This document shows positions 7,107-19,966 of a stretch of 20,000 nucleotides of DNA, piece after piece. Numbering within the stretch: position 1 is the stretch's first letter; the number at the start of each line of letters is the position of its first letter. Origin of the DNA: an uncultured virus (IMG/VR IMGVR_UViG_3300012005_000005) (taxonomy: Duplodnaviria; Heunggongvirae; Uroviricota; Caudoviricetes). The stretch lies in IMG/VR virus record IMGVR_UViG_3300012005_000005, one strand, 5' to 3'. Position numbers and translations under genes: made by a program. A model generated the notes under the pieces. The model saw only the letters and a list, made by a program, of their open reading frames with translations. It did no database searches and was not told where the DNA came from.

Positions 7107-7417
7107 GAATAGGTGGTAATTTTGAAGAAAGCCAAAATACCTATGGCAATGGCAGTGGCGATGGCAATGGCTATGGCAATGGCAATGGCAATGGCAGTGG
7201 CTATGGCAGTGGCAGTGGCTATGGCAATGGCAGTGGCGATGGCAATGGCAGTGGCTATGGCAATGGCAGTGGCTATGGCAGTGGCGATGGCGATGGCAAT
7301 GGCAGTGGCTATGGCAATGGCAGTGGCTATGGCAATGGCAGTGGCTATGGCAATGGCAGTGGCGATGGCGATGGCAATGGCAGTGGCTATGGCAATGGCA
7401 ATGGCAGTGGCTATTAA
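7091..7417 (+). CDS. Glycine-rich (Gly-X)45 repeat protein, X = N/S/Y/D
   Basis: 18-aa unique leader followed by 45 G-X dipeptides; start overlaps the end of the upstream gene. Confidence 0.75.
   Translation: MESNIRIGGNFEESQNTYGNGSGDGNGYGNGNGNGSGYGSGSGYGNGSGDGNGSGYGNGSGYGSGDGDGNGSGYGNGSGYGNGSGYGNGSGDGDGNGSGYGNGNGSGY
7142..7414. repeat. Hexanucleotide tandem repeat GGC(AAT/AGT/TAT/GAT)
   Basis: Directly visible 6-nt periodicity with recurring 18-nt higher-order units. Confidence 0.95.
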
Positions 7418-7437
7418 ATATTTCTAAACTTTTTTTT

Positions 7438-7650
7438 ATGATAAAGAGATTATTCGCTGTTCCTGTACTTGTATTTTGTATATTACTTGCTGTTTTATAT
7501 ACACTTAGTTGTGTATGGTTTTTATTATGGATGATAACAGGCAAAACTTATTTTGAAAGCGTGGTCTGTTTCTTAACAGAAGTTTCTTTTCCTTTTTTCG
7601 GAATTATTGGAAGTGAAAAAAATTACTATCCTGACTACAAAGAAGAATAA
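7438..7650 (+). CDS. Small membrane protein (70 aa)
   Basis: Hydrophobic N-terminal segment. Confidence 0.65.
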   Translation: MIKRLFAVPVLVFCILLAVLYTLSCVWFLLWMITGKTYFESVVCFLTEVSFPFFGIIGSEKNYYPDYKEE

Positions 7651-7913
7651 AAAGTTTATTATGTTTGCTTTTGTGGTTTTTACTGTACTGTACACACTGA
7701 CAATGAGATAAAAAAGGGAATTTATTCTCTAATTTTCAATATGGCTAAGGTTATTTACAACGGTAAGAAATGGCTTAGGTTAATTGTAATGATACACTTT
7801 TAGTGTGTTCCTAACATCTAAAATCCTTTAATAATAGGTTATTCCTATAAAATGGAAGTAAAGGCTTATTATTTTGTATAAGGTGTGGGTGAAAGTTAAA
7901 TGTAATAATGGTT

Positions 7914-8001
7914 TGTCTTGTGGCGCAACTGGATAGCGCGCCATGCAGCCATGCAAAAGTATGGCTCATGGAGGTTGAAGGTTCAACTCCTTTCAAGACA
8001 A
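7914..8001 (+). ncRNA. tRNA-like RNA with canonical acceptor, D and T arms but an elongated anticodon arm and no 7-nt anticodon loop
   Basis: Acceptor TGTCTTG 7914-7920/CAAGACA 7994-8000; D arm GCGC-AACTGGATA-GCGC; T arm GAAGG-TTCAACT-CCTTT; CCATG 7941-7945/CATGG 7967-7971 encloses 21 nt that fold as AGCCATGC-AAAA-GTATGGCT. Confidence 0.85.
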
Positions 8002-8011
8002 CATGAATAAT

Positions 8012-8151
8012 GGGATTGTATAATACAAATGTCCAAAATTTGTATAATAGTGGCGGAGTTTACTACGTGTGACTCTAAAGGAAGATTAAAAAAACAACCG
8101 CAAGTTGAGAGTTATCTATCCGAATGGTGTGTTCGATTCCACCCAATCCTG
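8012..8151 (+). ncRNA. 140-nt tRNA-like RNA (acceptor stem plus T arm, expanded multi-hairpin interior)
   Basis: GGGATTG 8012-8018/CAATCCT 8144-8150, directly preceded by GGTGtG-TTCGATT-CCACC; internal hairpins 8023-8045 and 8048-8065. Confidence 0.65.
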
Positions 8152-8153
8152 CT

Positions 8154-8314
8154 AAATTAAACCTGCTTGAAATTAACAGTAGAATCGTCCTCTTAAAAGG
8201 CTTAATGCAGCTATCCAAATAGCGTTGTTTAATGGAGAGATAAAAAGATGAGAGTATTACTATCCACTGTTTTAGTCAGTTAAGTTATTCCGATGGTAAG
8301 GACAGGTTTAATTT
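8154..8314 (+). ncRNA. Rod-like structured RNA of about 160 nt (possibly 6S-like)
   Basis: Perfect 12-bp closing stem AAATTAAACCTG 8154-8165/CAGGTTTAATTT 8303-8314; inner AACAGT 8175-8180/ACTGTT 8266-8271; apical GCTAT-CCAA-ATAGC. Confidence 0.5.
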
Positions 8315-8427
8315 TTTAAATTCATTTCAGTGGCATAAACAAGTGCAATAATTCCAACGAATTATGAGTTAACGGCGGAGCGGCACAGTCGGCACGAATA
8401 CGCACCACTATTTTTAAATTTTTTCTT

Positions 8428-8727
8428 ATGAAAAGAAAAGTAAGTAGTTTATGGTATAAACTGTTCTCTTATGTAAATGGAGAGCATACTAAATATGAGT
8501 ATGTTAAACATTTTAAAGAACAATCCATTTTAACTGAAATAGAACTTAAACAGTTTAACCTATGGATGAAAAAGGTAGGAGTATCTAAGTTATATACGAC
8601 TTTTGTATCTATAGAAGATCCAAACATTATTTTAGATGTTCCTTCTATTGCTACACAACTAAAAATTGAAAGGATAAAGGAATGCCACAGGCAATATGAA
8701 AAATCTAAAGAATCAAATATGGGGTAG
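8428..8727 (+). CDS. Hypothetical protein (99 aa)
   Basis: ORF track; its TAG lies in the 5' acceptor strand of the tmRNA. Confidence 0.7.
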   Translation: MKRKVSSLWYKLFSYVNGEHTKYEYVKHFKEQSILTEIELKQFNLWMKKVGVSKLYTTFVSIEDPNIILDVPSIATQLKIERIKECHRQYEKSKESNMG

Positions 8728-9112
8728 AAAAGGCAATCGACTGCCAAGAATCAGATTTATAGGCACATAAGCAAAAAGTATGTTATCTGCTTACTCAAGA
8801 ATACATATAAAAATAAATGTAAACGATTTATCGAATACATCGCTGGAAAATGATGTTGACGCTATGTTAACCTCTCTTTTCCCTGTAGAATTGGAAATGG
8901 CTGCATAAGCAATCATAAGATTGTTCTAATTTCTATGGCTCAGTTGTTCGCCATGCCTTAGTTTAATACTTTGGTAAACTTATGACGCTTTTTTGTTAAT
9001 TAGTTGATGCATTAAATAAATTAACTATTGCTAATAAAAATTAGCTAAGATGTGTAAGAAAACTATGCTTTTTTATCTTGGCAAGACCAGGGTTCGACTC
9101 CCTGCTACTCCA
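8721..9112 (+). ncRNA. ssrA: tmRNA (SsrA), phage-encoded
   Basis: Acceptor GGGGTAG/CTACTCC with G3:U70 and discriminator A; T arm CAGGG-TTCGACT-CCCTG; P2 TGCCAAGA 8742-8749/TCTTGGCA 9076-9083; internal tag frame 8819-8908 after AAATAAAT reads VNDLSNTSLENDVDAMLTSLFPVELEMAA*. Confidence 0.95.
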
Positions 9113-9159
9113 CTACTCCACATTAAATGTGGTTATGTCCATACAATCATAATAATAAA

Positions 9160-9690
9160 ATGAAGACAAACACATTAAACAGAAAAGCAATTGAACACCT
9201 TCAAATTATTGGTTATAAATTAACTGACTCTGTAGAAAAAATAATTGATTCACCTTTTTTATTATTTACAGAAAATGAAATAAAGACTTGCTACTCTGCA
9301 AAGGAATTTAATAATTATGCAGGCAAATTAAAAACACAAGAGCAGCTTTTAAAACTTCGTCCAAAAAATGAGGTAAAAGAATTTTCTAACTTATCAAAAA
9401 GGGAACAAGAGTTTTATAAGTTACTTAACTTATTGAATAATGCAAAAAATAATAAAATAGCTGGTTATGATGTTTCTTGGACTATTCAAAAGAAAAGGTA
9501 TGCGGATTATCGTTGGGAAATTTTACCAATAAGCCCTTTCGCCTGTGGTTCCATTTCAATGGAACACTTAGGAATAGTTTTAAATTTTGCAAAAGAACAC
9601 CAGTGGCACAATATTTCAATTTCTTATACAAATTGGTCACAGGAAAAAGAAAGGTATGGAACTTACACACCCTGTATAATTATTTCTTAA
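9160..9690 (+). CDS. Hypothetical protein
   Basis: Track ORF 9127-9690; ATG at 9160 follows an A-rich leader. Confidence 0.75.
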   Translation: MKTNTLNRKAIEHLQIIGYKLTDSVEKIIDSPFLLFTENEIKTCYSAKEFNNYAGKLKTQEQLLKLRPKNEVKEFSNLSKREQEFYKLLNLLNNAKNNKIAGYDVSWTIQKKRYADYRWEILPISPFACGSISMEHLGIVLNFAKEHQWHNISISYTNWSQEKERYGTYTPCIIIS

Positions 9691-11566: not shown

Positions 11567-11932
11567 ATGAAAAAAATCTTTGGGGTATATGGTACTCTTC
11601 GCAGAGGCTATGGAAATAACAGGTGTTTAGGAGATGCTAAGTTCTTAGGAGAATTTAAAACAGAACCAAACTACACCCTCTTTGATGGGGGGTTTCCGGT
11701 GTGTGAAAGAGGTGGAAATACCTCTATTCATATAGAACTATTTGAAACAGATAACCCTGAAATAATTTCTGATGTTAACTCATTAGAAGGCTGTACAGGA
11801 ATAAAAGGCCATCCAGCTAATTGGTATGACGTGGACTATATAAACAGTCCCTACGGAATAGCAACCATATTTGTTATGAACAAAGGAACAAGTGGCAGAA
11901 ACAAAATTTTAGAAACTGGTAAATGGAACTAA
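11567..11932 (+). CDS. Gamma-glutamylcyclotransferase (GGCT/AIG2-like)
   Basis: N-terminal VYGTLRRG..N motif and LEG carrying the catalytic Glu. Confidence 0.9.
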   Translation: MKKIFGVYGTLRRGYGNNRCLGDAKFLGEFKTEPNYTLFDGGFPVCERGGNTSIHIELFETDNPEIISDVNSLEGCTGIKGHPANWYDVDYINSPYGIATIFVMNKGTSGRNKILETGKWN

Positions 11933-11933
11933 A

Positions 11934-12158
11934 ATGACTATAAAAATAACTAAAAGAAAACTGGGAATTGGTTTGTGGGTACTCCTAATCTTAGGGTTTT
12001 TATTCTTTATTACTTATCCGTTTTATGTTAAGTTTGGATGGGGTTTCCTTATTATTCCAGGAAGTGTTATTTGTTTTGCTCTTTTATGTTTGTTAGCAGA
12101 CTATTTAACAAGCTCAGTGGGTCCTTATGGAACAGATAATTGGCATGACTATGAGTAA
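11934..12158 (+). CDS. Two-TM membrane protein (74 aa)
   Basis: Two hydrophobic segments. Confidence 0.7.
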   Translation: MTIKITKRKLGIGLWVLLILGFLFFITYPFYVKFGWGFLIIPGSVICFALLCLLADYLTSSVGPYGTDNWHDYE

Positions 12159-13146
12159 AATATATTACAAAGCATCTGAATTTTACGATGATATTAAAAT
12201 TCTAAGGGAAGAAGGTGTACACAGGGGTATAAACGTAGGCTTCTCAACATTAGATGATTTCTATAATAAGAAATTAGGGCGTTGTACATATATCTATTCT
12301 GCTCCTTTTTCAGGTAAGAGTCAATTTGCTTTTGAGCTTTCTATCAATTCTGCTTCTGCTTATAATTGGATTACTGCTGTATACTCACCTGAGAGTGGAA
12401 CCAAAGAGGAGATAGTTGCAAAGCTTGTGTTTATGATAACAGGAAAACAGTTATATGCTAAACACAAAAATTCAATAGATGAAGAACTGTTGAAAAGTGC
12501 CATGTCTTTTATAAATGATCACTTTATATTTATTGACCCAGATAATCCTCATGTAGATGATATATATGAAAATGCAATGCTTACACTTTTAGATTTTTAC
12601 AGATGTGTTAAGCAAGCAGAGTCATATTATGGTATCTCTATTCAAGAAACATTAATTGATCCTTTTAATGAACTTGCTCATGATTTTTCTAAAGATGAAG
12701 GTAGACAAGATCTTTACATAGAAAGAATGTTAGGGATTGCTCGTAGAGATGCTAAAATAAATCTTAGACATAACACTATAGTAACACACGTAGTAGACCA
12801 ACAAATAGAACGCAAAGGAGATATAAGATATTATCCTCCTGCCATGCCAAGAGAATTAGCAGGTGGACAAGCATGGTATCGTAAAGGAGATATGATGGCA
12901 TCATTATGGAGACCTCCATTTGGTTTAAAAGATGCAGAAGGCAGAGATTGGGAAGAAAATGAAATGCACGTTATAATTCAAAAAGTAAAGCCTGAATATT
13001 GTGGTAAAAGAGGAACTGTACCTCTTTTCTTTGATGTAGATACAGGCAGATACTATGAAAAGATAAATGGAAAAAACTATTATGCTTTTCAATATCAAAA
13101 ACATATAGGTGCATTAGAAAAACAACATCAAATTTTAATAAAATAA
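12151..13146 (+). CDS. SF4 (DnaB/T7 gp4-like) replicative DNA helicase without a primase domain
   Basis: GFSTLD, Walker A APFSGKS, YSPE, Walker B LIDPFNEL, H, IQKVK...G motifs; start at 12151 overlaps the upstream stop. Confidence 0.9.
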   Translation: MSKIYYKASEFYDDIKILREEGVHRGINVGFSTLDDFYNKKLGRCTYIYSAPFSGKSQFAFELSINSASAYNWITAVYSPESGTKEEIVAKLVFMITGKQLYAKHKNSIDEELLKSAMSFINDHFIFIDPDNPHVDDIYENAMLTLLDFYRCVKQAESYYGISIQETLIDPFNELAHDFSKDEGRQDLYIERMLGIARRDAKINLRHNTIVTHVVDQQIERKGDIRYYPPAMPRELAGGQAWYRKGDMMASLWRPPFGLKDAEGRDWEENEMHVIIQKVKPEYCGKRGTVPLFFDVDTGRYYEKINGKNYYAFQYQKHIGALEKQHQILIK

Positions 13147-13182
13147 CTGCCTTCAAAGGTTGTTAGTTTGGCTACTAAATAT

Positions 13183-13210
13183 AAGCCCTGTCTTTACAGG
13201 GCTTTTTTAT
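13183..13210 (+). terminator. Rho-independent terminator
   Basis: AAGCCCTG-TCTTTA-CAGGGCTT followed by a T run. Confidence 0.85.
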
Positions 13211-13339
13211 TTGGAATAGCTGATAGCGGGTGCGAGTTACATGGCTGCGGTAGCTGTCCAAAGGCATAAATCCAAATCAACCTCCCGAAGGTCGGAAGAT
13301 ACTCAAGAGCAATATCGGGCAAGGTAACTTATTCCAAAT
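13209..13339 (+). ncRNA. Candidate multi-stem structured RNA of about 130 nt
   Basis: ATTTGGAATA 13209-13218/TATTCCAAAT 13330-13339; AGTTAC 13235-13240/GTAACT 13324-13329; inner hairpins; GC-richer than its flanks. Confidence 0.6.
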
Positions 13340-13356
13340 TTTTTAAATAAACTCTT

Positions 13357-13596
13357 ATGGATTATAAACTAAAGAAGATAGCTAAAATAGGAGACAGTAT
13401 GATGTTAGAGTTAGGTATAGTGGAGCCTAATATTGTAAGAGATTGGTATACAAAAGATTTTGTTTATATAGAAACTTCTATTTTAGTATATAGAAGAAGA
13501 ATAAATGATGAGGCACAAAAGAAAAGTGAAGAAGTTGAAAAGATTAATGATGTTAAAAATCGTAGCCAGTTATCAAACGTTGTACCTTTAATTTAA
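13357..13596 (+). CDS. Hypothetical protein (79 aa)
   Basis: ORF track. Confidence 0.7.
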   Translation: MDYKLKKIAKIGDSMMLELGIVEPNIVRDWYTKDFVYIETSILVYRRRINDEAQKKSEEVEKINDVKNRSQLSNVVPLI

Positions 13597-13606
13597 AATC
13601 AAGCAA

Positions 13607-14323
13607 ATGAAACTACGCTCAATGATAGGAGATGATTGGTTTATTTTTTTCCAATCATTTTTAACATCAGGATTCTTTAAAACATTAGAAGCAGGTCTTT
13701 TAGAAGAAATTAAAAAAGAAAATTCTGTTTTAGTTCCTTCACTGTCTTATGTGTTTGAACCATTTAAAAGCTGTTCTTTAAAAGATTTAAAAGTAGTTAT
13801 ACTTAATGATATGCCTTTTAAAGATTTAAAAGCAAATGATGGGCTTGCTTTTTCTATTCTTCCTACTGTAGGCTTAATGAGTTCACCATTAGAAGGTATG
13901 GTGTTTTGGGAAGGTATAGAATTAGATATGTATGATGGTTTTCATATTCAAAAAGACTATGACCATCATAAATTAGCAGGACAAGGGGTTTTATTATTAA
14001 ACTGTTCACCCACACTATCTTATATAGATAACAAAACAGATAAACCTTATTGGGAAACTCATTATGATTTATGGAAACACTTCATAAAATATGTTATTCA
14101 CACTATCAGTAAAAACTGTACAGGTGTAATATTTGTCACTGTAGGTATTAAACCAAGAGAGTATATAAGCTCTATTATAAAATCTGATAACTATTTGCTA
14201 TCTGTAACACATCCGAGAAACTTTGTTCATTCAAGAGATACATGGGATTGTGCAGGAGCATTTTCCACAATAAATAAAATACTAAAAGCAAATAATAATT
14301 TAGAAATCACTTGGTTAAATTAA
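13607..14323 (+). CDS. Uracil-DNA glycosylase family-1-like protein with divergent active-site motifs
   Basis: LKVVIL, ANDGLAFS, QGVLLLN, H..W..F and HP motifs in UNG order; GQDPY is replaced by NDMPF. Confidence 0.8.
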   Translation: MKLRSMIGDDWFIFFQSFLTSGFFKTLEAGLLEEIKKENSVLVPSLSYVFEPFKSCSLKDLKVVILNDMPFKDLKANDGLAFSILPTVGLMSSPLEGMVFWEGIELDMYDGFHIQKDYDHHKLAGQGVLLLNCSPTLSYIDNKTDKPYWETHYDLWKHFIKYVIHTISKNCTGVIFVTVGIKPREYISSIIKSDNYLLSVTHPRNFVHSRDTWDCAGAFSTINKILKANNNLEITWLN

Positions 14324-14329
14324 AAAATT

Positions 14330-14680
14330 ATGGCAGAAATTACAGGTACACAATGCTGCGCTCTATTCCAAATAAGCGACATAGGTAATGATTCTACATT
14401 AAGAGAGATTGAAAACGCAATTTATGATATTATAGATGATGATGATAATCATGGAAGAGCAGCTTTTGTGATAACAATGAAAGAAGAAACTAATTTAGTA
14501 AAAAACCTAAAAACATTAGGCTTTAAGAAAATCACTACCTTTCAAAGAAAGTATATGTATGCCCAAACAGGTCTTACAATGTGGCTCAAAAAACTTAATT
14601 ACAGAAAAGAATATGACCAATACGTAAAAGATCAAGAAGAGGATGATGAAGGCTGCTATCTTGCAAACGATGACTATTAA
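14330..14680 (+). CDS. Hypothetical protein, possibly a minimal GNAT-like fold, with an acidic tail
   Basis: TQCCAL near the N-terminus; LKTLGFKKI...LTMWLK resembles the GNAT C-terminal motif (weak). Confidence 0.6.
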   Translation: MAEITGTQCCALFQISDIGNDSTLREIENAIYDIIDDDDNHGRAAFVITMKEETNLVKNLKTLGFKKITTFQRKYMYAQTGLTMWLKKLNYRKEYDQYVKDQEEDDEGCYLANDDY

Positions 14681-14701
14681 TAACAAAAACAAATAATATA
14701 T

Positions 14702-15538
14702 ATGACTAAGTTAATTAACAATCCTTTGTTAGGAACGGATTTTGAATTGTTTCTAAAGCACAAAGAAACTAATGAGATAGTATCTGCTGAGGGGCTTATA
14801 CAAGGAACTAAATATGCTCCTTTTAACTTTGATAAATCCAATCAGTTCTTTTCTACTTCTCTTGATAATGTACTTGCAGAATGTTGTATTCCTCCTGTAA
14901 ATAATGTAGAAGGGTGGCTTGCTAACATAAAAAAATCAAGAGATTATATAGAATCAATACTCCCTGCACATTTATGTACAGCAGCTACTCCTGCGGCTGT
15001 TTTAGATGCTAAGTGGCTTTCCACTATTAACGCTAAAACATTTGGATGCGATCCTGACTTCAACGCTTGGCTAAAATTAGCTAATGAAAGCCCAAAAGCA
15101 GACAATCCAAATCTTAGAAGTGCGGGTGCTCATATTCATGTAGGATATGATTTGCACCTTCTTGAGGATGGTGAAGTTGATTGGGAAAAGAAAATTTCTC
15201 TTGGAGAGAATATTATTAAAGCAATGGATTTGTTTGTTGGTGTACCTTCTGTTATTCAAGAACCTGAGAATGATAGAAAGAAGCTATACGGAAAAGCAGG
15301 TGCTTTCAGATTTAAAGACTATGGTGTAGAATATCGTACAGCGAGCAATTATTATTTAGAAAGTGAAAAGCTTACAAAATGGGTATTTGGAGCAACCATA
15401 AAAGCTTTGGATTTTGTAAATGAGGAACGCATAGAAGAAGTAGATAGTGTTGGAGGCTTTATTCAGTCTGCTATAAATGAAAATGATAAGAACTTAGCAT
15501 GGCAACTTATAAGACAATTTGATTTGGAATTGGCATAA
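14702..15538 (+). CDS. phiEco32-like COOH-NH2 ligase type 2 (glutamine synthetase-like amidoligase)
   Basis: GTDFELFL, DNVLAE, GCDPDFNAW, RSAGAHIHVG and RKKLYGKAGAFRFKDYGVEYRT.SN motifs. Confidence 0.9.
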   Translation: MTKLINNPLLGTDFELFLKHKETNEIVSAEGLIQGTKYAPFNFDKSNQFFSTSLDNVLAECCIPPVNNVEGWLANIKKSRDYIESILPAHLCTAATPAAVLDAKWLSTINAKTFGCDPDFNAWLKLANESPKADNPNLRSAGAHIHVGYDLHLLEDGEVDWEKKISLGENIIKAMDLFVGVPSVIQEPENDRKKLYGKAGAFRFKDYGVEYRTASNYYLESEKLTKWVFGATIKALDFVNEERIEEVDSVGGFIQSAINENDKNLAWQLIRQFDLELA

Positions 15539-15572
15539 ATCTTAAATTAGTGTAATTAACAAATATTAAATA

Positions 15573-16415
15573 ATGAAGAGACTAATTGTATTTTCACGCC
15601 ATCCTTCTCATAATATGTTAAGGGAGGCAGGTTTGCTTTTTGAAAAAAGGACACTCATAAGATTTGGCTCAGAAACAATACCAAAACGTAAGTTTGATGT
15701 AGAGATAAATTCTCCTAACGCTGTTAAAGATTCTGCTAATAAACTACTAATGAAGCAGGATTTTACGAGGGCGGGTGTGAAAACAACAGATTGGTATATT
15801 TGGTTAGAAGAGGGTTTAGTAAGACCTGTTGGCATTGAAAACGGATGGATGTTAACCACAGATGGTTGTGAATTGAATAGATTGAATTATCCTATAATAG
15901 CTAAACATATTTATGGAAGCAGGGGAACAGGAAATTATAAACTTGATGATGAAATAACTTTAAAAAACTGGATTTACAAACCTAACAGAGATTTATCTAA
16001 ATTCATATTTGAAGAGTTCTTTAAGAAAGGTCGTGAATATAGACTTCATGTAACAAAGGATGGGTGTTTTTACACTTGCCGAAAACTGCTTAAAAATGAT
16101 GCAGTAGAACGCTGGCACAGACATTCAAGTAATTGTATATGGCTTTTAGAAACTCATCCTAAGTTTGATAAGCCTGTTAATTGGGAATTGATAGAAGCAG
16201 ATTGTGTGAAGGCATTAGAGGCGATTGGCGCAGATGTTTTAGCTTTTGATGTAAAGGTACAGTTTAGTAAAAATAAGAATGGGAAGGTACGTGAAAATCC
16301 CAAATGGGTGATAATTGAATCATGCTCTGCTCCTTCATTCGGTGACATCACTCTTCAAAAATATATTGAAGAAATTCCTAAAATTTATAAAAGTAAAACA
16401 GATGGTAAGTTATAA
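15573..16415 (+). CDS. ATP-grasp ligase (RimK-like, phiEco32 type)
   Basis: NKL..K, YPIIAK...GSRGTG, FEEF, EYRLHV, FDVK and IIESCSAPS motifs. Confidence 0.85.
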   Translation: MKRLIVFSRHPSHNMLREAGLLFEKRTLIRFGSETIPKRKFDVEINSPNAVKDSANKLLMKQDFTRAGVKTTDWYIWLEEGLVRPVGIENGWMLTTDGCELNRLNYPIIAKHIYGSRGTGNYKLDDEITLKNWIYKPNRDLSKFIFEEFFKKGREYRLHVTKDGCFYTCRKLLKNDAVERWHRHSSNCIWLLETHPKFDKPVNWELIEADCVKALEAIGADVLAFDVKVQFSKNKNGKVRENPKWVIIESCSAPSFGDITLQKYIEEIPKIYKSKTDGKL

Positions 16416-16962
16416 ATTGTTTTCAGGAAAAAGACTTGTTAAAGACCATGAACAAACAACTTGTTTTGTTTACATTACCCAATTTAGTTTTTCAAAAGAA
16501 ATAGACAAAGTAGTTATTTATCCACACTTGTATCAGATGCAAAATTTTACAGAAGAAGAGATTAAAATATGGATAAAGACTATTAACCTTTGGGGGTTTA
16601 AGTGCCACTACGATGGCAAAGATAATCTTCGTTACTATTTTAGTATAGATTTAAAAAAGATGTATAACAAACCACATTTAACATCTACGCTAATATTAAT
16701 TAGATATTTGTGGGAACAAGAAGAAATATTGAAAAAATATTTTTCTCTTAGAGAAGATAGGAGAAACAAATTTAAAGCAATGTTAGAGGCTCATAATATT
16801 AACGTGCCTTATATTAATTCTAACCACACTCTAAGAGATTATAGAAAACAAACACTTACTTCTCACAAAGAAATACTAAAAAGGATAAAAGAATGTGAAA
16901 TACCTGTTCATGGAGAATCATCCAGGTATGATAATTTAATAAGTAATTTATGGAGAAACTAA
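16402..16962 (+). CDS. Hypothetical protein within the ligase cluster
   Basis: ATG at 16402 overlaps the end of the ATP-grasp gene (track ORF starts at 16315). Confidence 0.75.
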   Translation: MVSYKLFSGKRLVKDHEQTTCFVYITQFSFSKEIDKVVIYPHLYQMQNFTEEEIKIWIKTINLWGFKCHYDGKDNLRYYFSIDLKKMYNKPHLTSTLILIRYLWEQEEILKKYFSLREDRRNKFKAMLEAHNINVPYINSNHTLRDYRKQTLTSHKEILKRIKECEIPVHGESSRYDNLISNLWRN

Positions 16963-16979
16963 TCAATAAAAAATAGAAT

Positions 16980-17618
16980 ATGAATAAAAGAAAAATCTAT
17001 GTTGTAGGAAACTCATTTGAGTACGCAAATTGGATGGAAGGCAAACTAACTAATGTGCTTGAAGAATCAGATTTAATTGTATTTACAGGTGGTGAAGATG
17101 TTTCTCCTGTTTTATATGGAGAAAAACCACATCCCACCACAGGTTTTAATATTAGAAGGGATACTAATGAAATGCAGATTTACTGTAAAGCACTTCAGCA
17201 CAAAAAACATATTATAGGAATCTGTAGAGGTTCTCAATTTTTATGTGTAATGAATGGTGGTAAACTTGTACAGCACCAAAACAATCCTAAATACATACAT
17301 CCTATCTCTCTTAGAGACGGAACAGTGATTAATATTACTTCTACACATCATCAAGCTGCTTATCCTTTTAATCTTTCAAAAGAAGATTATATTATAATAG
17401 GGTGGGGAGATGGATTGTCAGAGTTCCATTTAAATGGATATGGAGAAGAACTCAGTGACATTCCTAATTTTAAAGAATGTGAAATAGTGTATTACCCGCA
17501 CACTAAATGTTTAGGTATTCAAGGGCATCCTGAGCATGAAAATTATAAATATGAAGATGGCCTGCCATATCTTCAAAACTTATTAAATGATTTTTTAAAC
17601 GATAAAATAAAAGTATGA
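16980..17618 (+). CDS. Class I glutamine amidotransferase / peptidase C26 (gamma-glutamyl hydrolase-like)
   Basis: FTGGEDVSP..YGE, GICRGSQ nucleophile Cys, STHHQ and QGHPE triad motif. Confidence 0.92.
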   Translation: MNKRKIYVVGNSFEYANWMEGKLTNVLEESDLIVFTGGEDVSPVLYGEKPHPTTGFNIRRDTNEMQIYCKALQHKKHIIGICRGSQFLCVMNGGKLVQHQNNPKYIHPISLRDGTVINITSTHHQAAYPFNLSKEDYIIIGWGDGLSEFHLNGYGEELSDIPNFKECEIVYYPHTKCLGIQGHPEHENYKYEDGLPYLQNLLNDFLNDKIKV

Positions 17619-19966
17619 TAACATTATTTGCAAGTCTTTATTTTCTTTCATATATATTACGAATAGTTCGTGGTGGTAAGTTAAACACATTGTCTTGTGG
17701 GTTATTTGGATTTTGCGGCTCTGAACCACCTGATATGAACAAGATTAAAATCTTAGGAATCTTGAATGAGATAAGAGGCACGCACTCTTGTGGGATATTT
17801 TATAATGGAAAAATTATAAAAGGTGTTGGTAAAGAAGCAATATTTACTAACTTTTTAACATATAACACTATTAATGCTGTAAAAGGAGCTAATATTTTTA
17901 TAGGGCATACAAGATCTGCTACTTATGGGGAACATTCGGAGGAAAACGCTCATCCATTTTCAGTAAATGATGAGTTAGTATTAGCTCATAATGGAACTCT
18001 TACTAATTCTTGGGCTATGTGTAATAAATATAACATAGACCATACCAAAATAAGAGTGGACAGTTTAGCACTTGCTTGCTTATTACATCAGGAAGGGGAA
18101 AAGATTTTAAATGAGTATAAAGGAGCGGCTGCACTACTTTATTGTAAAAAAGATAGTCCTGATAGCTTATTTGTATATCATGGATCGTCTAAGAAAAAAC
18201 CTAATGAAAAGGAAGAAGAGGAAAGACCTTTATATTATATGAAAACTAAAACAGGTTTTTACTTTAGCAGCTTAGTGTATGCTTTAGAAGTTATAAGAGA
18301 AAATGAAAGAGAGTATCCACTTCTTGTGCCTTATAACAGAGTTTTAAAGTTTACTAATAATAAACAAGAAAAGTCTACTATTATAGTAGACAGGGGAGAT
18401 TGTAATGTTGTATATCCCTCGCCAGTTTTTAATAAAAATGCGGATATTAGAACTTGTGTTGGCTATCCTAAAGCGTCTGACTACAACGGTAAAGGTACTG
18501 CTGTTTTGGCTTCAAGTAAAGAAGAGGAGTCACTAATTTGGAGGGAATCTTTGCCTAAGAAATCTTTTGATACTGAGTGTGACTTCTTATATTTTCATAA
18601 AGGAAGGTACTGGAAAGTTGAAAATACTAAAGTGGCTCAGGTCACTACTTATGCAGATGGTTGTTTGAAGCTTTCAAAGAAAAGCGGGCATATAAATGAA
18701 GATGGGATAGCTTTTTACTTTTATAAAGGAGTGTTATTAAAAGGTTCAGGCTCATTAGATATTGTAAACCTTCCTGAAACTCAGGAAAAGTTGAAAAAAA
18801 TGAACTTTGCTGCAATAATAAGCAAATATTCAAGGTATCCTGTTACAAATCTTGAGGATGAAAGTACGTTTGTACCTATATCAGATGTTAGGTTCTGCTG
18901 GTATAGCAATGGCAGACCAGAAAAATCTGGATTCACTCCTCTATTTTCTAATAGAACTTATACCTTTAAAGAAGGAAGGCTGGTAAAAATAACATGTCAT
19001 GATAAATTAGAAGAACCTTTGATAATTGAGCCTGTAATAAAAAAAGAAGGGGCTCCTGTAATAAAAAAAGAAAAATCAGATATTGTAAAGCAAGCTACAC
19101 TCTCTTTCTCTACAGACAAAGAAAAAGACAAAAAAGAAAACTTAGCTGCTTTAGAGGAAGAGTTGAAATTCTTTAATAAGAGAGGTTGGATAACTGAGGA
19201 AACTGTACAAGCACATATTTCTTCTGTAGGAGAAAATGCTTTAGATTCTTATATACGAGATGCAAGTTGGGCGCAGTCAGAAGCTACCATATGTAAAAAA
19301 GATGTAGATGAAAGAATATCCACAATATTTACAGATGCTGTGTTAAATCATACTTCTATATTAGAAGAGCTTCCGAATATTGGATGCTTTACTGATTATT
19401 TAGAAGATGCCATAGAAAGCCAACAAACTGTAAACGCAATCATAAGAGATGTTAAAAAGAATGGAACAACTGCTTCAAGAAAAGCAATTTCTTCTGATTA
19501 TGAACAAAACTCATTAGGAATTTGGGTTCCCAAAAATAAAGATGATTTGCCCTTTGATGGAAAAGTAATAGAACTTTGTAAAGTATGTGCAGGATATGGT
19601 TTAGATTTAGATGATGAAAGGATTCTTTGTGATCATTGTGATGGCACAGGCAAAGAACCATTAGTTAAACTATTTTCTGATCCAGAATTAAACAAAGAAC
19701 CTTTTCTAACAGAATTAGAGGAAGAAGTTATTTTAGAAGAGGCTTATGCCAAAGAGCTTTTAGAAGAGTTTGTAGAAACAATTAGAAGTTTTGACTCTAC
19801 AATAAATTCGTTGGAAGAACTGAAAAAAACAGAATTAGCAACTGATGCTTGTAAAATATTAAATGAAGAAATACTAATTATTAAGAGACGACTTACGGAA
19901 GTAGGAAGCAGATTTGGATTAGAAAAATTCACAAACCAAATAAATAAAAAATCATTACTATGTTAA
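17615..19966 (+). CDS. Class II (Ntn) glutamine amidotransferase domain fused to a long C-terminal region with a CxxCxGxG zinc finger and acidic helical tail
   Basis: CGLFG, RGTHSCG, GHTRSAT, NAHPF, HNGTL and VDS motifs; CKVCAGYG...CDHCDGTG. Confidence 0.88.
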   Translation: MITLFASLYFLSYILRIVRGGKLNTLSCGLFGFCGSEPPDMNKIKILGILNEIRGTHSCGIFYNGKIIKGVGKEAIFTNFLTYNTINAVKGANIFIGHTRSATYGEHSEENAHPFSVNDELVLAHNGTLTNSWAMCNKYNIDHTKIRVDSLALACLLHQEGEKILNEYKGAAALLYCKKDSPDSLFVYHGSSKKKPNEKEEEERPLYYMKTKTGFYFSSLVYALEVIRENEREYPLLVPYNRVLKFTNNKQEKSTIIVDRGDCNVVYPSPVFNKNADIRTCVGYPKASDYNGKGTAVLASSKEEESLIWRESLPKKSFDTECDFLYFHKGRYWKVENTKVAQVTTYADGCLKLSKKSGHINEDGIAFYFYKGVLLKGSGSLDIVNLPETQEKLKKMNFAAIISKYSRYPVTNLEDESTFVPISDVRFCWYSNGRPEKSGFTPLFSNRTYTFKEGRLVKITCHDKLEEPLIIEPVIKKEGAPVIKKEKSDIVKQATLSFSTDKEKDKKENLAALEEELKFFNKRGWITEETVQAHISSVGENALDSYIRDASWAQSEATICKKDVDERISTIFTDAVLNHTSILEELPNIGCFTDYLEDAIESQQTVNAIIRDVKKNGTTASRKAISSDYEQNSLGIWVPKNKDDLPFDGKVIELCKVCAGYGLDLDDERILCDHCDGTGKEPLVKLFSDPELNKEPFLTELEEEVILEEAYAKELLEEFVETIRSFDSTINSLEELKKTELATDACKILNEEILIIKRRLTEVGSRFGLEKFTNQINKKSLLC

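Follow-up and report, generated by a model that had tools for sequence, protein, structure and literature searches.

The 20,000-nt stretch of DNA analyzed here, hereafter the window, comes from an uncultured virus of the Caudoviricetes (IMG/VR record IMGVR_UViG_3300012005_000005), and our subject is a 140-nt element on its + strand at 8012-8151. Two RNA genes, a transfer RNA (tRNA) and this element, lie between an open reading frame (ORF) that ends at 7650 and another that starts at 8428. A sequence-only reading of the window had proposed a tRNA-like RNA gene in which an acceptor stem and a T arm close an oversized interior, and the sequence at 8012-8151 bears this out. The element is made up as follows.

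8012-8018 (+): 5' strand of the acceptor stem, GGGATTG, pairing 7/7 with 8144-8150, first pair G.U (pair probability 0.89-1.0)
8019-8049 (+): palindromic hairpin between tRNA positions 9 and 10, with arms TATAATACAAAT and ATTTGTATAATA and a 7-nt loop
8050-8066 (+): D-arm-like hairpin from the cloverleaf search, stem GTGG/CTAC (8050-8053/8063-8066), in competition with helix 8055-8076 of the minimum free energy (MFE) fold
8069-8115 (+): anticodon-arm analogue, 8-bp stem GTGACTCT/AGAGTTAT (8069-8076/8108-8115)
8116-8125 (+): variable region of 10 nt, CTATCCGAAT, from the cloverleaf search
8126-8143 (+): T arm, GGTGTG-TTCGATT-CCACC, with an extra U at 8130 in the 5' strand of the stem and a G-C closing pair
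8144-8151 (+): 3' strand of the acceptor stem, CAATCCT, and discriminator G; CCA is not encoded (CTA follows)

The terminal parts were as first described from the sequence: the acceptor stem GGGATTG/CAATCCT forms seven pairs (8012-8018/8144-8150) with G8151 as discriminator, and the T arm at 8126-8143 carries the TTCGATT loop and one bulged base, the extra U at 8130. The third acceptor pair is G8014-C8148 (G3-C70). Set against a canonical tRNA (Rfam RF00005), the element has the 7-bp acceptor stem with unpaired discriminator, and of the canonical T arm (5-bp stem, 7-nt TTCRANY loop) it has the loop and the closing G-C, while the stem has one U too many. The interior departs further. There is no D stem directly after position 9, a D-like arm (8050-8066) being reached only after a 29-nt hairpin, and instead of a 5-bp anticodon stem with a 7-nt loop and U33 there is an 8-bp stem around 31 nt.

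The first of these two inserts, 29 nt long, has UA at each edge and can be counted as 8021-8049 or as 8019-8047. Its hairpin is an inverted repeat with 12-nt arms (8019-8030/8038-8049) that are 92% complementary, and the 8-bp core, ATACAAAT/ATTTGTAT (8023-8030/8038-8045), has a pair probability of 0.92-1.0. A 10-nt direct repeat, TTGTATAATA, flanks the insert at 8016-8025 and 8040-8049. The palindrome has no second copy in the window, where words resembling TTGTATAATA are commoner than expected (16 vs 6.8). The D-like arm is preceded by TA (8048-8049) and has a 9-nt loop, CGGAGTTTA, that includes GG; two linker bases separate it from the 8-bp anticodon-type stem, and the 31 nt enclosed by that stem (8077-8107) consist of an A-rich strand and the hairpin CAAC-CGCAA-GTTG (8095-8107).

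Two folds compete for this interior. The MFE fold (-30.0 kcal/mol, z = -1.52, with 16/200 shuffles folding equally well) is a multi-hairpin structure with hairpins at 8019-8049, 8055-8076 and 8080-8121, the last containing the small CAAC-CGCAA-GTTG hairpin, followed by the T arm, and in its essentials it agrees with the sequence-only reading. In the ensemble the pair probabilities are 0.68-0.89 for GGAAGAT/ATCTATCC (8080-8086/8114-8121), 0.75-0.77 for the small hairpin and just 0.27-0.48 for the T stem. The interior hairpins of the sequence-only reading can all be located, with one of them failing as structure: the helix TAGTGG/TTACTA (8048-8053/8060-8065) has an ensemble probability of 0.0, outcompeted by GGAGTT/GACTCT (8055-8076). 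When the cloverleaf pairs were enforced the energy was -26.1 kcal/mol, 3.9 above the minimum, in a nearest-neighbor model whose energies leave out tRNA tertiary contacts. Neither the multi-hairpin fold nor the cloverleaf fold contains a 7-nt anticodon loop, and the RNA would thus be unable to decode as it stands.

The element had at first been left without a family, and it stays so. Rfam searches of 1801 nt and of 152 nt alone at E<=10 returned nothing from the tRNA clan (tRNA, tRNA-Sec, transfer-messenger RNA (tmRNA)), YrlA, introns or ribozymes, and the three matches listed for the 152 nt were noise; the Rfam check suggested with the sequence-only reading (tRNA, tRNA-Sec, YrlA, tmRNA) therefore gave no family for the element. 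ARAGORN, in default and intron modes, detected nothing in it either. The element lies below both detection thresholds for a tRNA, that of RF00005 (gathering score 29 bits) and that of ARAGORN.

We also considered particular identities. A tmRNA or mini-tmRNA (RF00023, RF04321) was rejected: alanine charging of tmRNA needs G3.U70 and the third pair here is G-C, a tag frame with its resume codon and stop is lacking, and no tmRNA or permuted-tmRNA match was obtained at E<=10. That no tag ORF is present had been noted from the outset, and all that can be found is a two-codon frame, GCA-AGT-TGA at 8100-8108, which we discarded as meaningless. YrlA or another Y RNA (RF02553) was likewise rejected. 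In YrlA the tRNA-like module is internal and the termini form the Ro-binding stem, whereas the termini of the element form the acceptor stem; no match was found, and the suggested check for a Ro60/TROVE gene showed no TROVE domain in the 31 window ORFs scanned with Pfam or in the nearest relative record (G001). The comparison with tmRNA- or Y-RNA-type architecture made at first sight is thus not supported. An intron-containing tRNA was set aside because the ARAGORN intron mode was empty and no intron family matched. In-silico removal of every pair of segments (33,120 variants) yielded 0 ARAGORN tRNAs at default thresholds; with relaxed thresholds or with the extra U dropped it yielded thousands of calls with contradictory anticodons, so that the test is not discriminating. 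The element does fit the phage tRNA-like stable RNAs, in its site beside a tRNA gene, its length within 120-145 nt, its tRNA-like ends and its non-tRNA interior.

How often such a structure arises by chance depends on which part is asked about. A T loop, a T stem (bulge allowed) and a 7-bp acceptor stem within 60-250 nt occurred at least once in 265/1000 shuffled windows (mean 0.31 per 20 kb, both strands). The real window holds two such motifs only, the Rfam-detected tRNA at 7914-8001 and the element, on the same strand and 10 nt apart, and from the shuffled-window scan we calculate a probability of ~2e-4 for a chance motif that starts at most 30 nt from the end of the tRNA. It is this position, 10 nt past a tRNA, together with the recurrence of the T arm in other viral contigs described below, that leads us to regard the tRNA-like ends as real.

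For the interior, a strict cloverleaf skeleton (U-purine, then a D stem of 4 bp whose loop contains GG, a linker of 1-2 nt and, with its end 4-21 nt ahead of the T arm, a stem of 8 bp or more) was found in 5/5000 dinucleotide-shuffled interiors, and in 109/5000 when a stem of at least 5 bp was accepted. A looser test (D stem of 3-4 bp, second stem of 5 bp or more) was passed by 1231/2000 shuffles and is uninformative. Among known tRNAs the only significant similarity was a local one to the tRNA-Tyr of phage T5 (z 4.97, 0/300 shuffles), much of it from the T arm, covering the 3' half of the element: the 3' strand of the anticodon stem, the variable region and the T arm. Given the rarity of the strict skeleton and this similarity, we prefer to read the interior as the body of a tRNA cloverleaf into which two pieces have been inserted, rather than as an unconnected series of hairpins.

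No homologue of the element was found in any collection searched. A blastn search of 50,697 phage records, run once with 1301 nt and once with just the 140 nt at E<=10, gave only chance matches of 19-31 nt, and exact patterns of the element found no homologue in IMG/VR. Loci anchored on the helicase-like gene of the window numbered three, none with the element and two of them (L002 and L003) without a tRNA; a 187-aa ORF anchored 0 loci, and the 99-aa ORF that follows the element gave 3 weak 25-residue matches and no homologue of the element. A profile built on the 99-aa protein drew 314 pattern matches and 0 relatives in the metagenome collection. A 19-mer of T loop and acceptor had 8 matches in 185,579 species genomes, 0 of them tRNAs and all apparently coding. 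Blastn in 401 Bacteroidota genomes gave short matches in 42, the best on the 3' end of the tmRNA, and the five matches on the element (26-31 nt) were at chance level. A class II tRNA covariance model was dropped because the MAFFT alignments behind it (A2 and A3) were too poor. The DNA of the window occurs in four soil-metagenome runs of one study, with no RNA run among those that carry the stretch, and the element is identical in all four, with zero variants. With no homologue and no variant, no reading considered here has covariation behind it, which is the main weakness of them all.

One part of the element does recur elsewhere. The exact 18-mer of its T arm, GGTGTGTTCGATTCCACC, was found at 4 loci in IMG/VR; 4/4 are tRNA-shaped and flanked by 6-7 pairing acceptor bases, and two lie within tRNA arrays of 10 and 7 genes. 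In the metagenome collection the 18-mer occurred at 34 loci, of which 8 read as tRNA-shaped (L034, L036, L040, L045, L052 and L055, plus L056 and L059, which repeat IMG/VR loci). A further 21 (L028-L032, L035, L037-L039, L041-L044, L046, L047, L049-L051, L053, L054 and L057) were rejected as tRNA-shaped, since they lie within open frames of more than 150 codons and are apparent coding coincidences, and five are of uncertain status (L033, which is the same as L058, and L048, L060 and L061). The element shares its exact 18-mer with L024-L027, L034, L036, L040, L045 and L055. With the T loop relaxed to TTCRANT, IMG/VR gave 28 loci, one per contig, and ~15 of the 22 distinct sequences were tRNA-shaped. 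The extra-U pattern in the 401 Bacteroidota genomes had 2 matches, both in protein-coding repeats.

The carriers of this arm range from almost ordinary tRNAs to genes of ~100-145 nt in which large inserts are present. L040 scored 46.7 bits with the Rfam tRNA model, which aligns the extra U as an inserted base of the T stem, and L091, L090 and L065 (44.6, 41.3 and 33.4 bits) are near-normal tRNAs as well; the anticodon loop CTCATAA is shared by L026, L036, L078 and L091, and of these L026 and L078, and probably L091, have a U-U mismatch at the first acceptor pair. At the other end of the range are members with large inserts, L067, L069, L087, L045 and L080, with total lengths as cut of 98, 106, 126, 145 and 146 nt, in which an anticodon-type stem encloses 29-80 nt; L080 lies on a 548-kb contig and L087 on one of 354 kb. 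L071 (~114 nt) has the extra-U arm, and a cloverleaf search found no cloverleaf in it. As for the element, L069, L070, L071, L080 and L087 had no Rfam tRNA match at E<=0.5. ARAGORN labels other extra-U genes as intron-containing, for example L080 as a tRNA-Val with a 52-nt intron, in a model that lacks U33. Despite the same T arm and a similar length, the interior of L045 is unrelated to that of the element (z about 0). On the evidence of these loci, the extra U turns up repeatedly in viral tRNA-derived genes and is not a private lesion of the element. A literature search found nothing about T arms with an extra U or about tRNA-like genes of phages that bear inserts, with most subscription journals and the 1970s papers on T4 and T5 RNA sequences outside its coverage.

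Several of these loci are of interest in their own right. L045 (793-937, -) and L080 (146 nt, around 401-418, -) are homologues of ~145 nt on different contigs, with an ordinary acceptor stem and D arm, a ~80-nt insert that shares conserved blocks, and the extra-U T arm, and the pair is a candidate conserved family. In a phage array of 10 tRNAs, L026 (1204-1288, -) encodes an 85-nt RNA, CCA included, whose match to the tmRNA model is limited to the ends of that model (20.6 bits, E 4.2e-05), and this RNA looks like a tmRNA cut down to its tRNA-like domain. L055 carries a full tmRNA (272-643, +, 91.4 bits) and, 110 nt further on, an extra-U tRNA-shaped gene with a GTA anticodon loop (754-826, +). 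On the marine contig of L036, two tRNA-model matches (519-599 and 679-755, both -, 39.8 and 30.6 bits) adjoin the extra-U gene; both have 4 nt in place of the 15-nt D arm and a long extra arm, and they are D-armless tRNA-like genes. In L086 (372-489, +) the extra-U arm lies inside a weak YrlA match (31.4 bits, E 0.0011, gathering score 69), from which some carriers of the arm may be Y-RNA-like rather than tRNA-like.

We consider the element to be a real tRNA-derived gene. The reading we favor, to which we give about equal chances of being right and wrong, is that it encodes a non-decoding, tRNA-derived stable RNA that would be excised by tRNA-processing enzymes, by analogy with RNA1 of phage T5 and the species 1 RNA of phage T4. 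Of a tRNA it retains the acceptor stem (7 bp), the UA of positions 8-9, a D stem (4 bp), an anticodon-type stem (8 bp), the 10-nt variable region, the T arm and the discriminator G. Support for this reading comes from the intact acceptor stem, T loop and discriminator, from the rarity of the strict cloverleaf skeleton among shuffled interiors, from the absence of a 7-nt anticodon loop in both folds, from the Bacteroidota genomes, where the extra-U pattern met protein-coding DNA only, from the 10-nt spacing (the tRNA ends at 8001 and the element starts at 8012), which is typical of tRNA arrays, from the recurrence of the extra-U T arm together with large anticodon-arm inserts, and from the T4 and T5 precedents.

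A number of points weigh on the other side. The Rfam tRNA model had no match to the element, the stability of its fold is not significant, and the nearest-neighbor model prefers the multi-hairpin fold (-30.0 kcal/mol) to the cloverleaf (-26.1 kcal/mol). The D loop lacks the usual A14...G18G19...A21 spacing, and the cloverleaf statistic was framed after the structure had been seen, which makes it supportive, not conclusive. A homologue was found nowhere, and so neither gene nor fold has support from conservation or covariation. Short direct repeats flank the first insert and sit in the anticodon arm of the neighboring tRNA, the pattern expected of replication slippage in decaying genes. Any mimic or decoy step is, finally, pure inference.

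The acceptor/T-arm half of a tRNA is the substrate determinant for ribonuclease (RNase) P, for 3' trimming and for CCA addition. On the favored reading the element would be transcribed from the + strand together with the tRNA 10 nt upstream, its acceptor/T-arm half would be recognized by the enzymes of these three reactions, and the excised, CCA-capped product would build up as a stable RNA ~140-143 nt long, like those of T4 and T5. A scan for promoter-like sites returned fewer than in shuffles (4 vs 9.8). As to what such an RNA might do, we can only speculate that it is a tRNA mimic that occupies a tRNA-binding protein, such as a host tRNA-targeting defense nuclease or a modification or charging enzyme, or alternatively that the tRNA body is a stable scaffold that presents the inserted hairpins.

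The RNA genes on either side of the element bear on the alternatives.

7914-8001 (+): tRNA gene, its anticodon arm longer by a 20-nt insert (47.5 bits with Rfam tRNA, gathering score 29; ARAGORN in intron mode only)
8721-9113 (+): phage tmRNA gene (ARAGORN; Rfam tmRNA 44.7 bits, E 4.7e-16, slightly below the gathering score of 47)

The anticodon arm of the tRNA has 11 pairs, one bulged C and an 8-nt loop, GCAAAAGT, and contains a tandem 8-nt repeat, GCCATGCA, at 7940-7947 and 7948-7955. In intron mode ARAGORN models it as tRNA-Gly(gcc) with a 14-nt intron and A at position 33. Since no single-intron placement restores U33, this tRNA, like the element, is probably unable to decode. The tmRNA, which starts 570 nt downstream of the element, has a G3.U70 acceptor and an ARAGORN-predicted 29-residue tag that ends in MAA. 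A variant ~88% identical across 8614-8900 was present in two soil runs, which means that a related phage shares the tmRNA.

The most serious alternative, unlikely in our estimation and yet well ahead of the others, is that the element is a decaying tRNA gene, once functional, disabled by duplications and insertions of the slippage type and in the course of being lost, with any transcript a by-product. The direct repeat TTGTATAATA around the first insert is what such a history would leave, and so are the tandem GCCATGCA repeat (7940-7955) and the absence of U33 in the neighboring tRNA; the extra U in the T stem, the non-canonical D loop, the failure of Rfam and ARAGORN to see the element, the lack of homologues and a z of only -1.52 all agree with it. 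Decay does not readily account for what is preserved, however: 7/7 acceptor pairs, the T-stem pairs and the T loop are intact, and the survival of a 4-bp D stem and an 8-bp anticodon-type stem (5/5000) would be unexpected after much neutral decay. Both inserts form hairpins, the extra-U arm recurs in many viral contigs, some of which score as tRNAs (L040 at 46.7, L091 at 44.6 and L090 at 41.3 bits), and useless DNA is usually purged from phage genomes. We regard it as improbable that the element is a processing signal only, its top half serving as a cutting mark for RNase P and RNase Z on a long + strand transcript, like the t-elements of plant mitochondria, with the excised RNA functionless. 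The listed genes around it are all on the + strand, no + strand terminator-like site was found in 7400-9400, the element stands between early-type small ORFs and the pair of ORF 8428-8727 and the tmRNA, and its fully canonical look is limited to the top half; against this, the adjacent tRNA at 7914-8001 would already supply the same cut 10 nt away, and a D arm, an 8-bp anticodon-type stem and 60 nt of structured inserts are superfluous for a cutting mark.

A functional but interrupted tRNA, from which both inserts would be removed after transcription to leave a decoding tRNA, is less probable again. The cloverleaf skeleton is complete save for the anticodon loop, and ARAGORN offers intron models for the neighbor (tRNA-Gly(gcc), 14 nt) and for L080 (tRNA-Val, 52 nt), but both of these models lack U33, and for the element the intron mode is empty and the 33,120 double deletions give 0 default calls and contradictory relaxed ones. 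No group I intron or ribozyme family matched, and self-splicing introns are far longer than 29-31 nt. No tRNA splicing endonuclease is known from bacteria, nor is a bacterial intron site known at position 9/10. A mini-tmRNA or Y-RNA-like (YrlA) RNA we find hardly credible: an acceptor and T-arm top half around a large interior, a site 570 nt upstream of a phage tmRNA, an A-rich run ahead of an interior GCA codon and the weak YrlA match of another extra-U locus (L086, 31.4 bits, below the gathering score of 69) speak for it, and G3-C70, a tag of two codons, the lack of any tmRNA, permuted-tmRNA or YrlA match at E<=10, termini that form an acceptor stem and not a Ro-binding stem, and the absence of TROVE from the window ORFs scanned and from G001 speak against it. 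Chance takes up most of what remains.

Beyond the favored reading of a single stable RNA lies a broader proposal, which we rate as quite unlikely: that the extra-U T stem marks an undescribed class of tRNA-scaffolded phage RNAs, one gene each in phages, many of them large, with lineage-specific cargo hairpins replacing the anticodon loop. The element would be a divergent member carrying a further cargo hairpin at 9/10, and the extra U and the cargo would bind or evade a tRNA-recognizing protein. If this were so, the tRNA body would provide processing and stability, and the class might be a device for counter-defense or for the takeover of translation, for example against a host tRNA-cleaving defense nuclease. 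If the signature marks a real class, it also gives a handle for gathering members for covariation analysis and for choosing candidates for experiments on phage tRNA mimics. As a single copy without relatives the element is a modest addition when taken alone, and most of the interest lies in the recurring extra-U T arm.

The window itself appears to be part of a large uncultured phage, with almost all sizeable ORFs on the + strand. PHROG and Pfam matches of its ORFs include a primase/helicase-like protein, a phiEco32-type COOH-NH2 ligase, glutamine amidotransferases and a gamma-glutamyl cyclotransferase. The closest relatives of the helicase-like protein are Flavobacterium and Riemerella phage proteins at 30% identity, from which a Bacteroidota host is a weak guess. 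The contig of the nearest relative record (G001, 42 kb) begins ~2.7 kb downstream of the element.

Between the element and the tmRNA lies ORF 8428-8727 (+, 99 aa), whose final 7 bases overlap the 5' end of the tmRNA gene. Its relatives are P0002 (77% identity, on a 1117-nt ENA contig) and P0003 (61%, on a 1227-nt Logan contig), and its differences from a variant contig of the same runs fall mainly at third codon positions; these observations together indicate a real gene. Conservation is in the C-terminal half, the only domain match is a weak one to DUF5712 (E 0.0074), and a contig of 121,587 bases is on record as carrying the protein. The DNA between the element and this ORF has features of its own. 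A perfect 12-bp inverted repeat, AAATTAAACCTG / CAGGTTTAATTT at 8154-8165 / 8303-8314, starts 3 nt past the element, and a T run comes after it; its arms, 137 nt apart, may form the stem of a further RNA or a terminator-like structure, and the fold of the enclosed DNA does not exceed shuffles in stability (z -0.36). In run X1 a short contig aligns to the noncoding 8348-8421 alone (6 differences, 2 gaps) and diverges on both sides, which suggests a conserved element directly upstream of ORF 8428.

Further downstream, at 11567-19966 (+), is a cluster that encodes a gamma-glutamyl cyclotransferase-like protein, a phiEco32-type COOH-NH2 ligase, an ATP-grasp-like protein that PHROG names 'S6 glutaminyl transferase', a class I amidotransferase/peptidase C26, and a protein of 783 aa whose N-terminal domain is that of a class II amidotransferase. 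The cluster is a predicted phage amidoligase module.

Among known systems, tmRNA (RF00023), including the tmRNAs reduced to the tRNA-like domain, resembles the element in its tRNA-like top half without an anticodon, and the element is likewise phage-encoded and beside a tmRNA gene; unlike a tmRNA, and unlike the tmRNA at 8721-9113, which does have G3.U70, it has neither that pair nor a tag frame nor a match to the model. YrlA and the bacterial Y RNAs (RF02553) share a tRNA-like module with a T arm, in a reversed topology, the termini of the element being the acceptor stem. The extra-U viral genes, a group defined here by one shared arm and not a described family, are closer: they have the T arm GGTGTG-TTCRANT-CCACC and 6-7 bp of acceptor pairing, and several are invisible to the Rfam tRNA model. 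Most of them differ from the element in having an ordinary D arm right after positions 8-9 and a variable region of 4-8 nt; none has the palindromic insert, and their interiors are unrelated to that of the element.

It is about fifty years since the tRNA-like stable RNAs of phages T4 and T5 became known, and the element is so far a unique addition to this old and unexplained set and no new category. The species 1 RNA of T4 (rnaC, NC_000866, 70908-71046) has a length of 139 nt and stands directly behind tRNA genes with spacers of a few nt, following tRNA-Arg and rnaD (species 2 RNA, 119 nt). As in the element, its 3' end is a canonical T arm and then the strand of a terminal stem. The two have no sequence similarity (z -0.7), the terminal stem of rnaC is imperfect, its interior is unrelated, and its fold is much more stable than chance (z -4.57, against -1.52 for the element). 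Neither rnaC nor rnaD has an Rfam family, and a T4 review describes the roles of RNAC and RNAD as unknown (PMC3014915).

RNA1 and RNA2 of T5 (AY543070, misc_RNA 30501-30644 and 32959-33083; 144 and 125 nt), annotated as 'tRNA-like stable RNA with unknown functions', also lie in a phage tRNA gene region. Their host is E. coli, whereas that of the element's phage, found in soil, may be one of the Bacteroidota. Their T stems are regular, there is no hairpin between acceptor stem and D arm, and there is no significant sequence similarity to the element (RNA1 z 2.09, with 12/300 shuffles equal; RNA2 z -0.59). Like the element, both combine an acceptor stem, a D arm and a canonical T arm with a long structured insert that replaces the anticodon loop, and RNA1 has a variable-arm hairpin as well. 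The design of T4 and T5 thus recurs in an unrelated soil phage, here beside a phage tmRNA.

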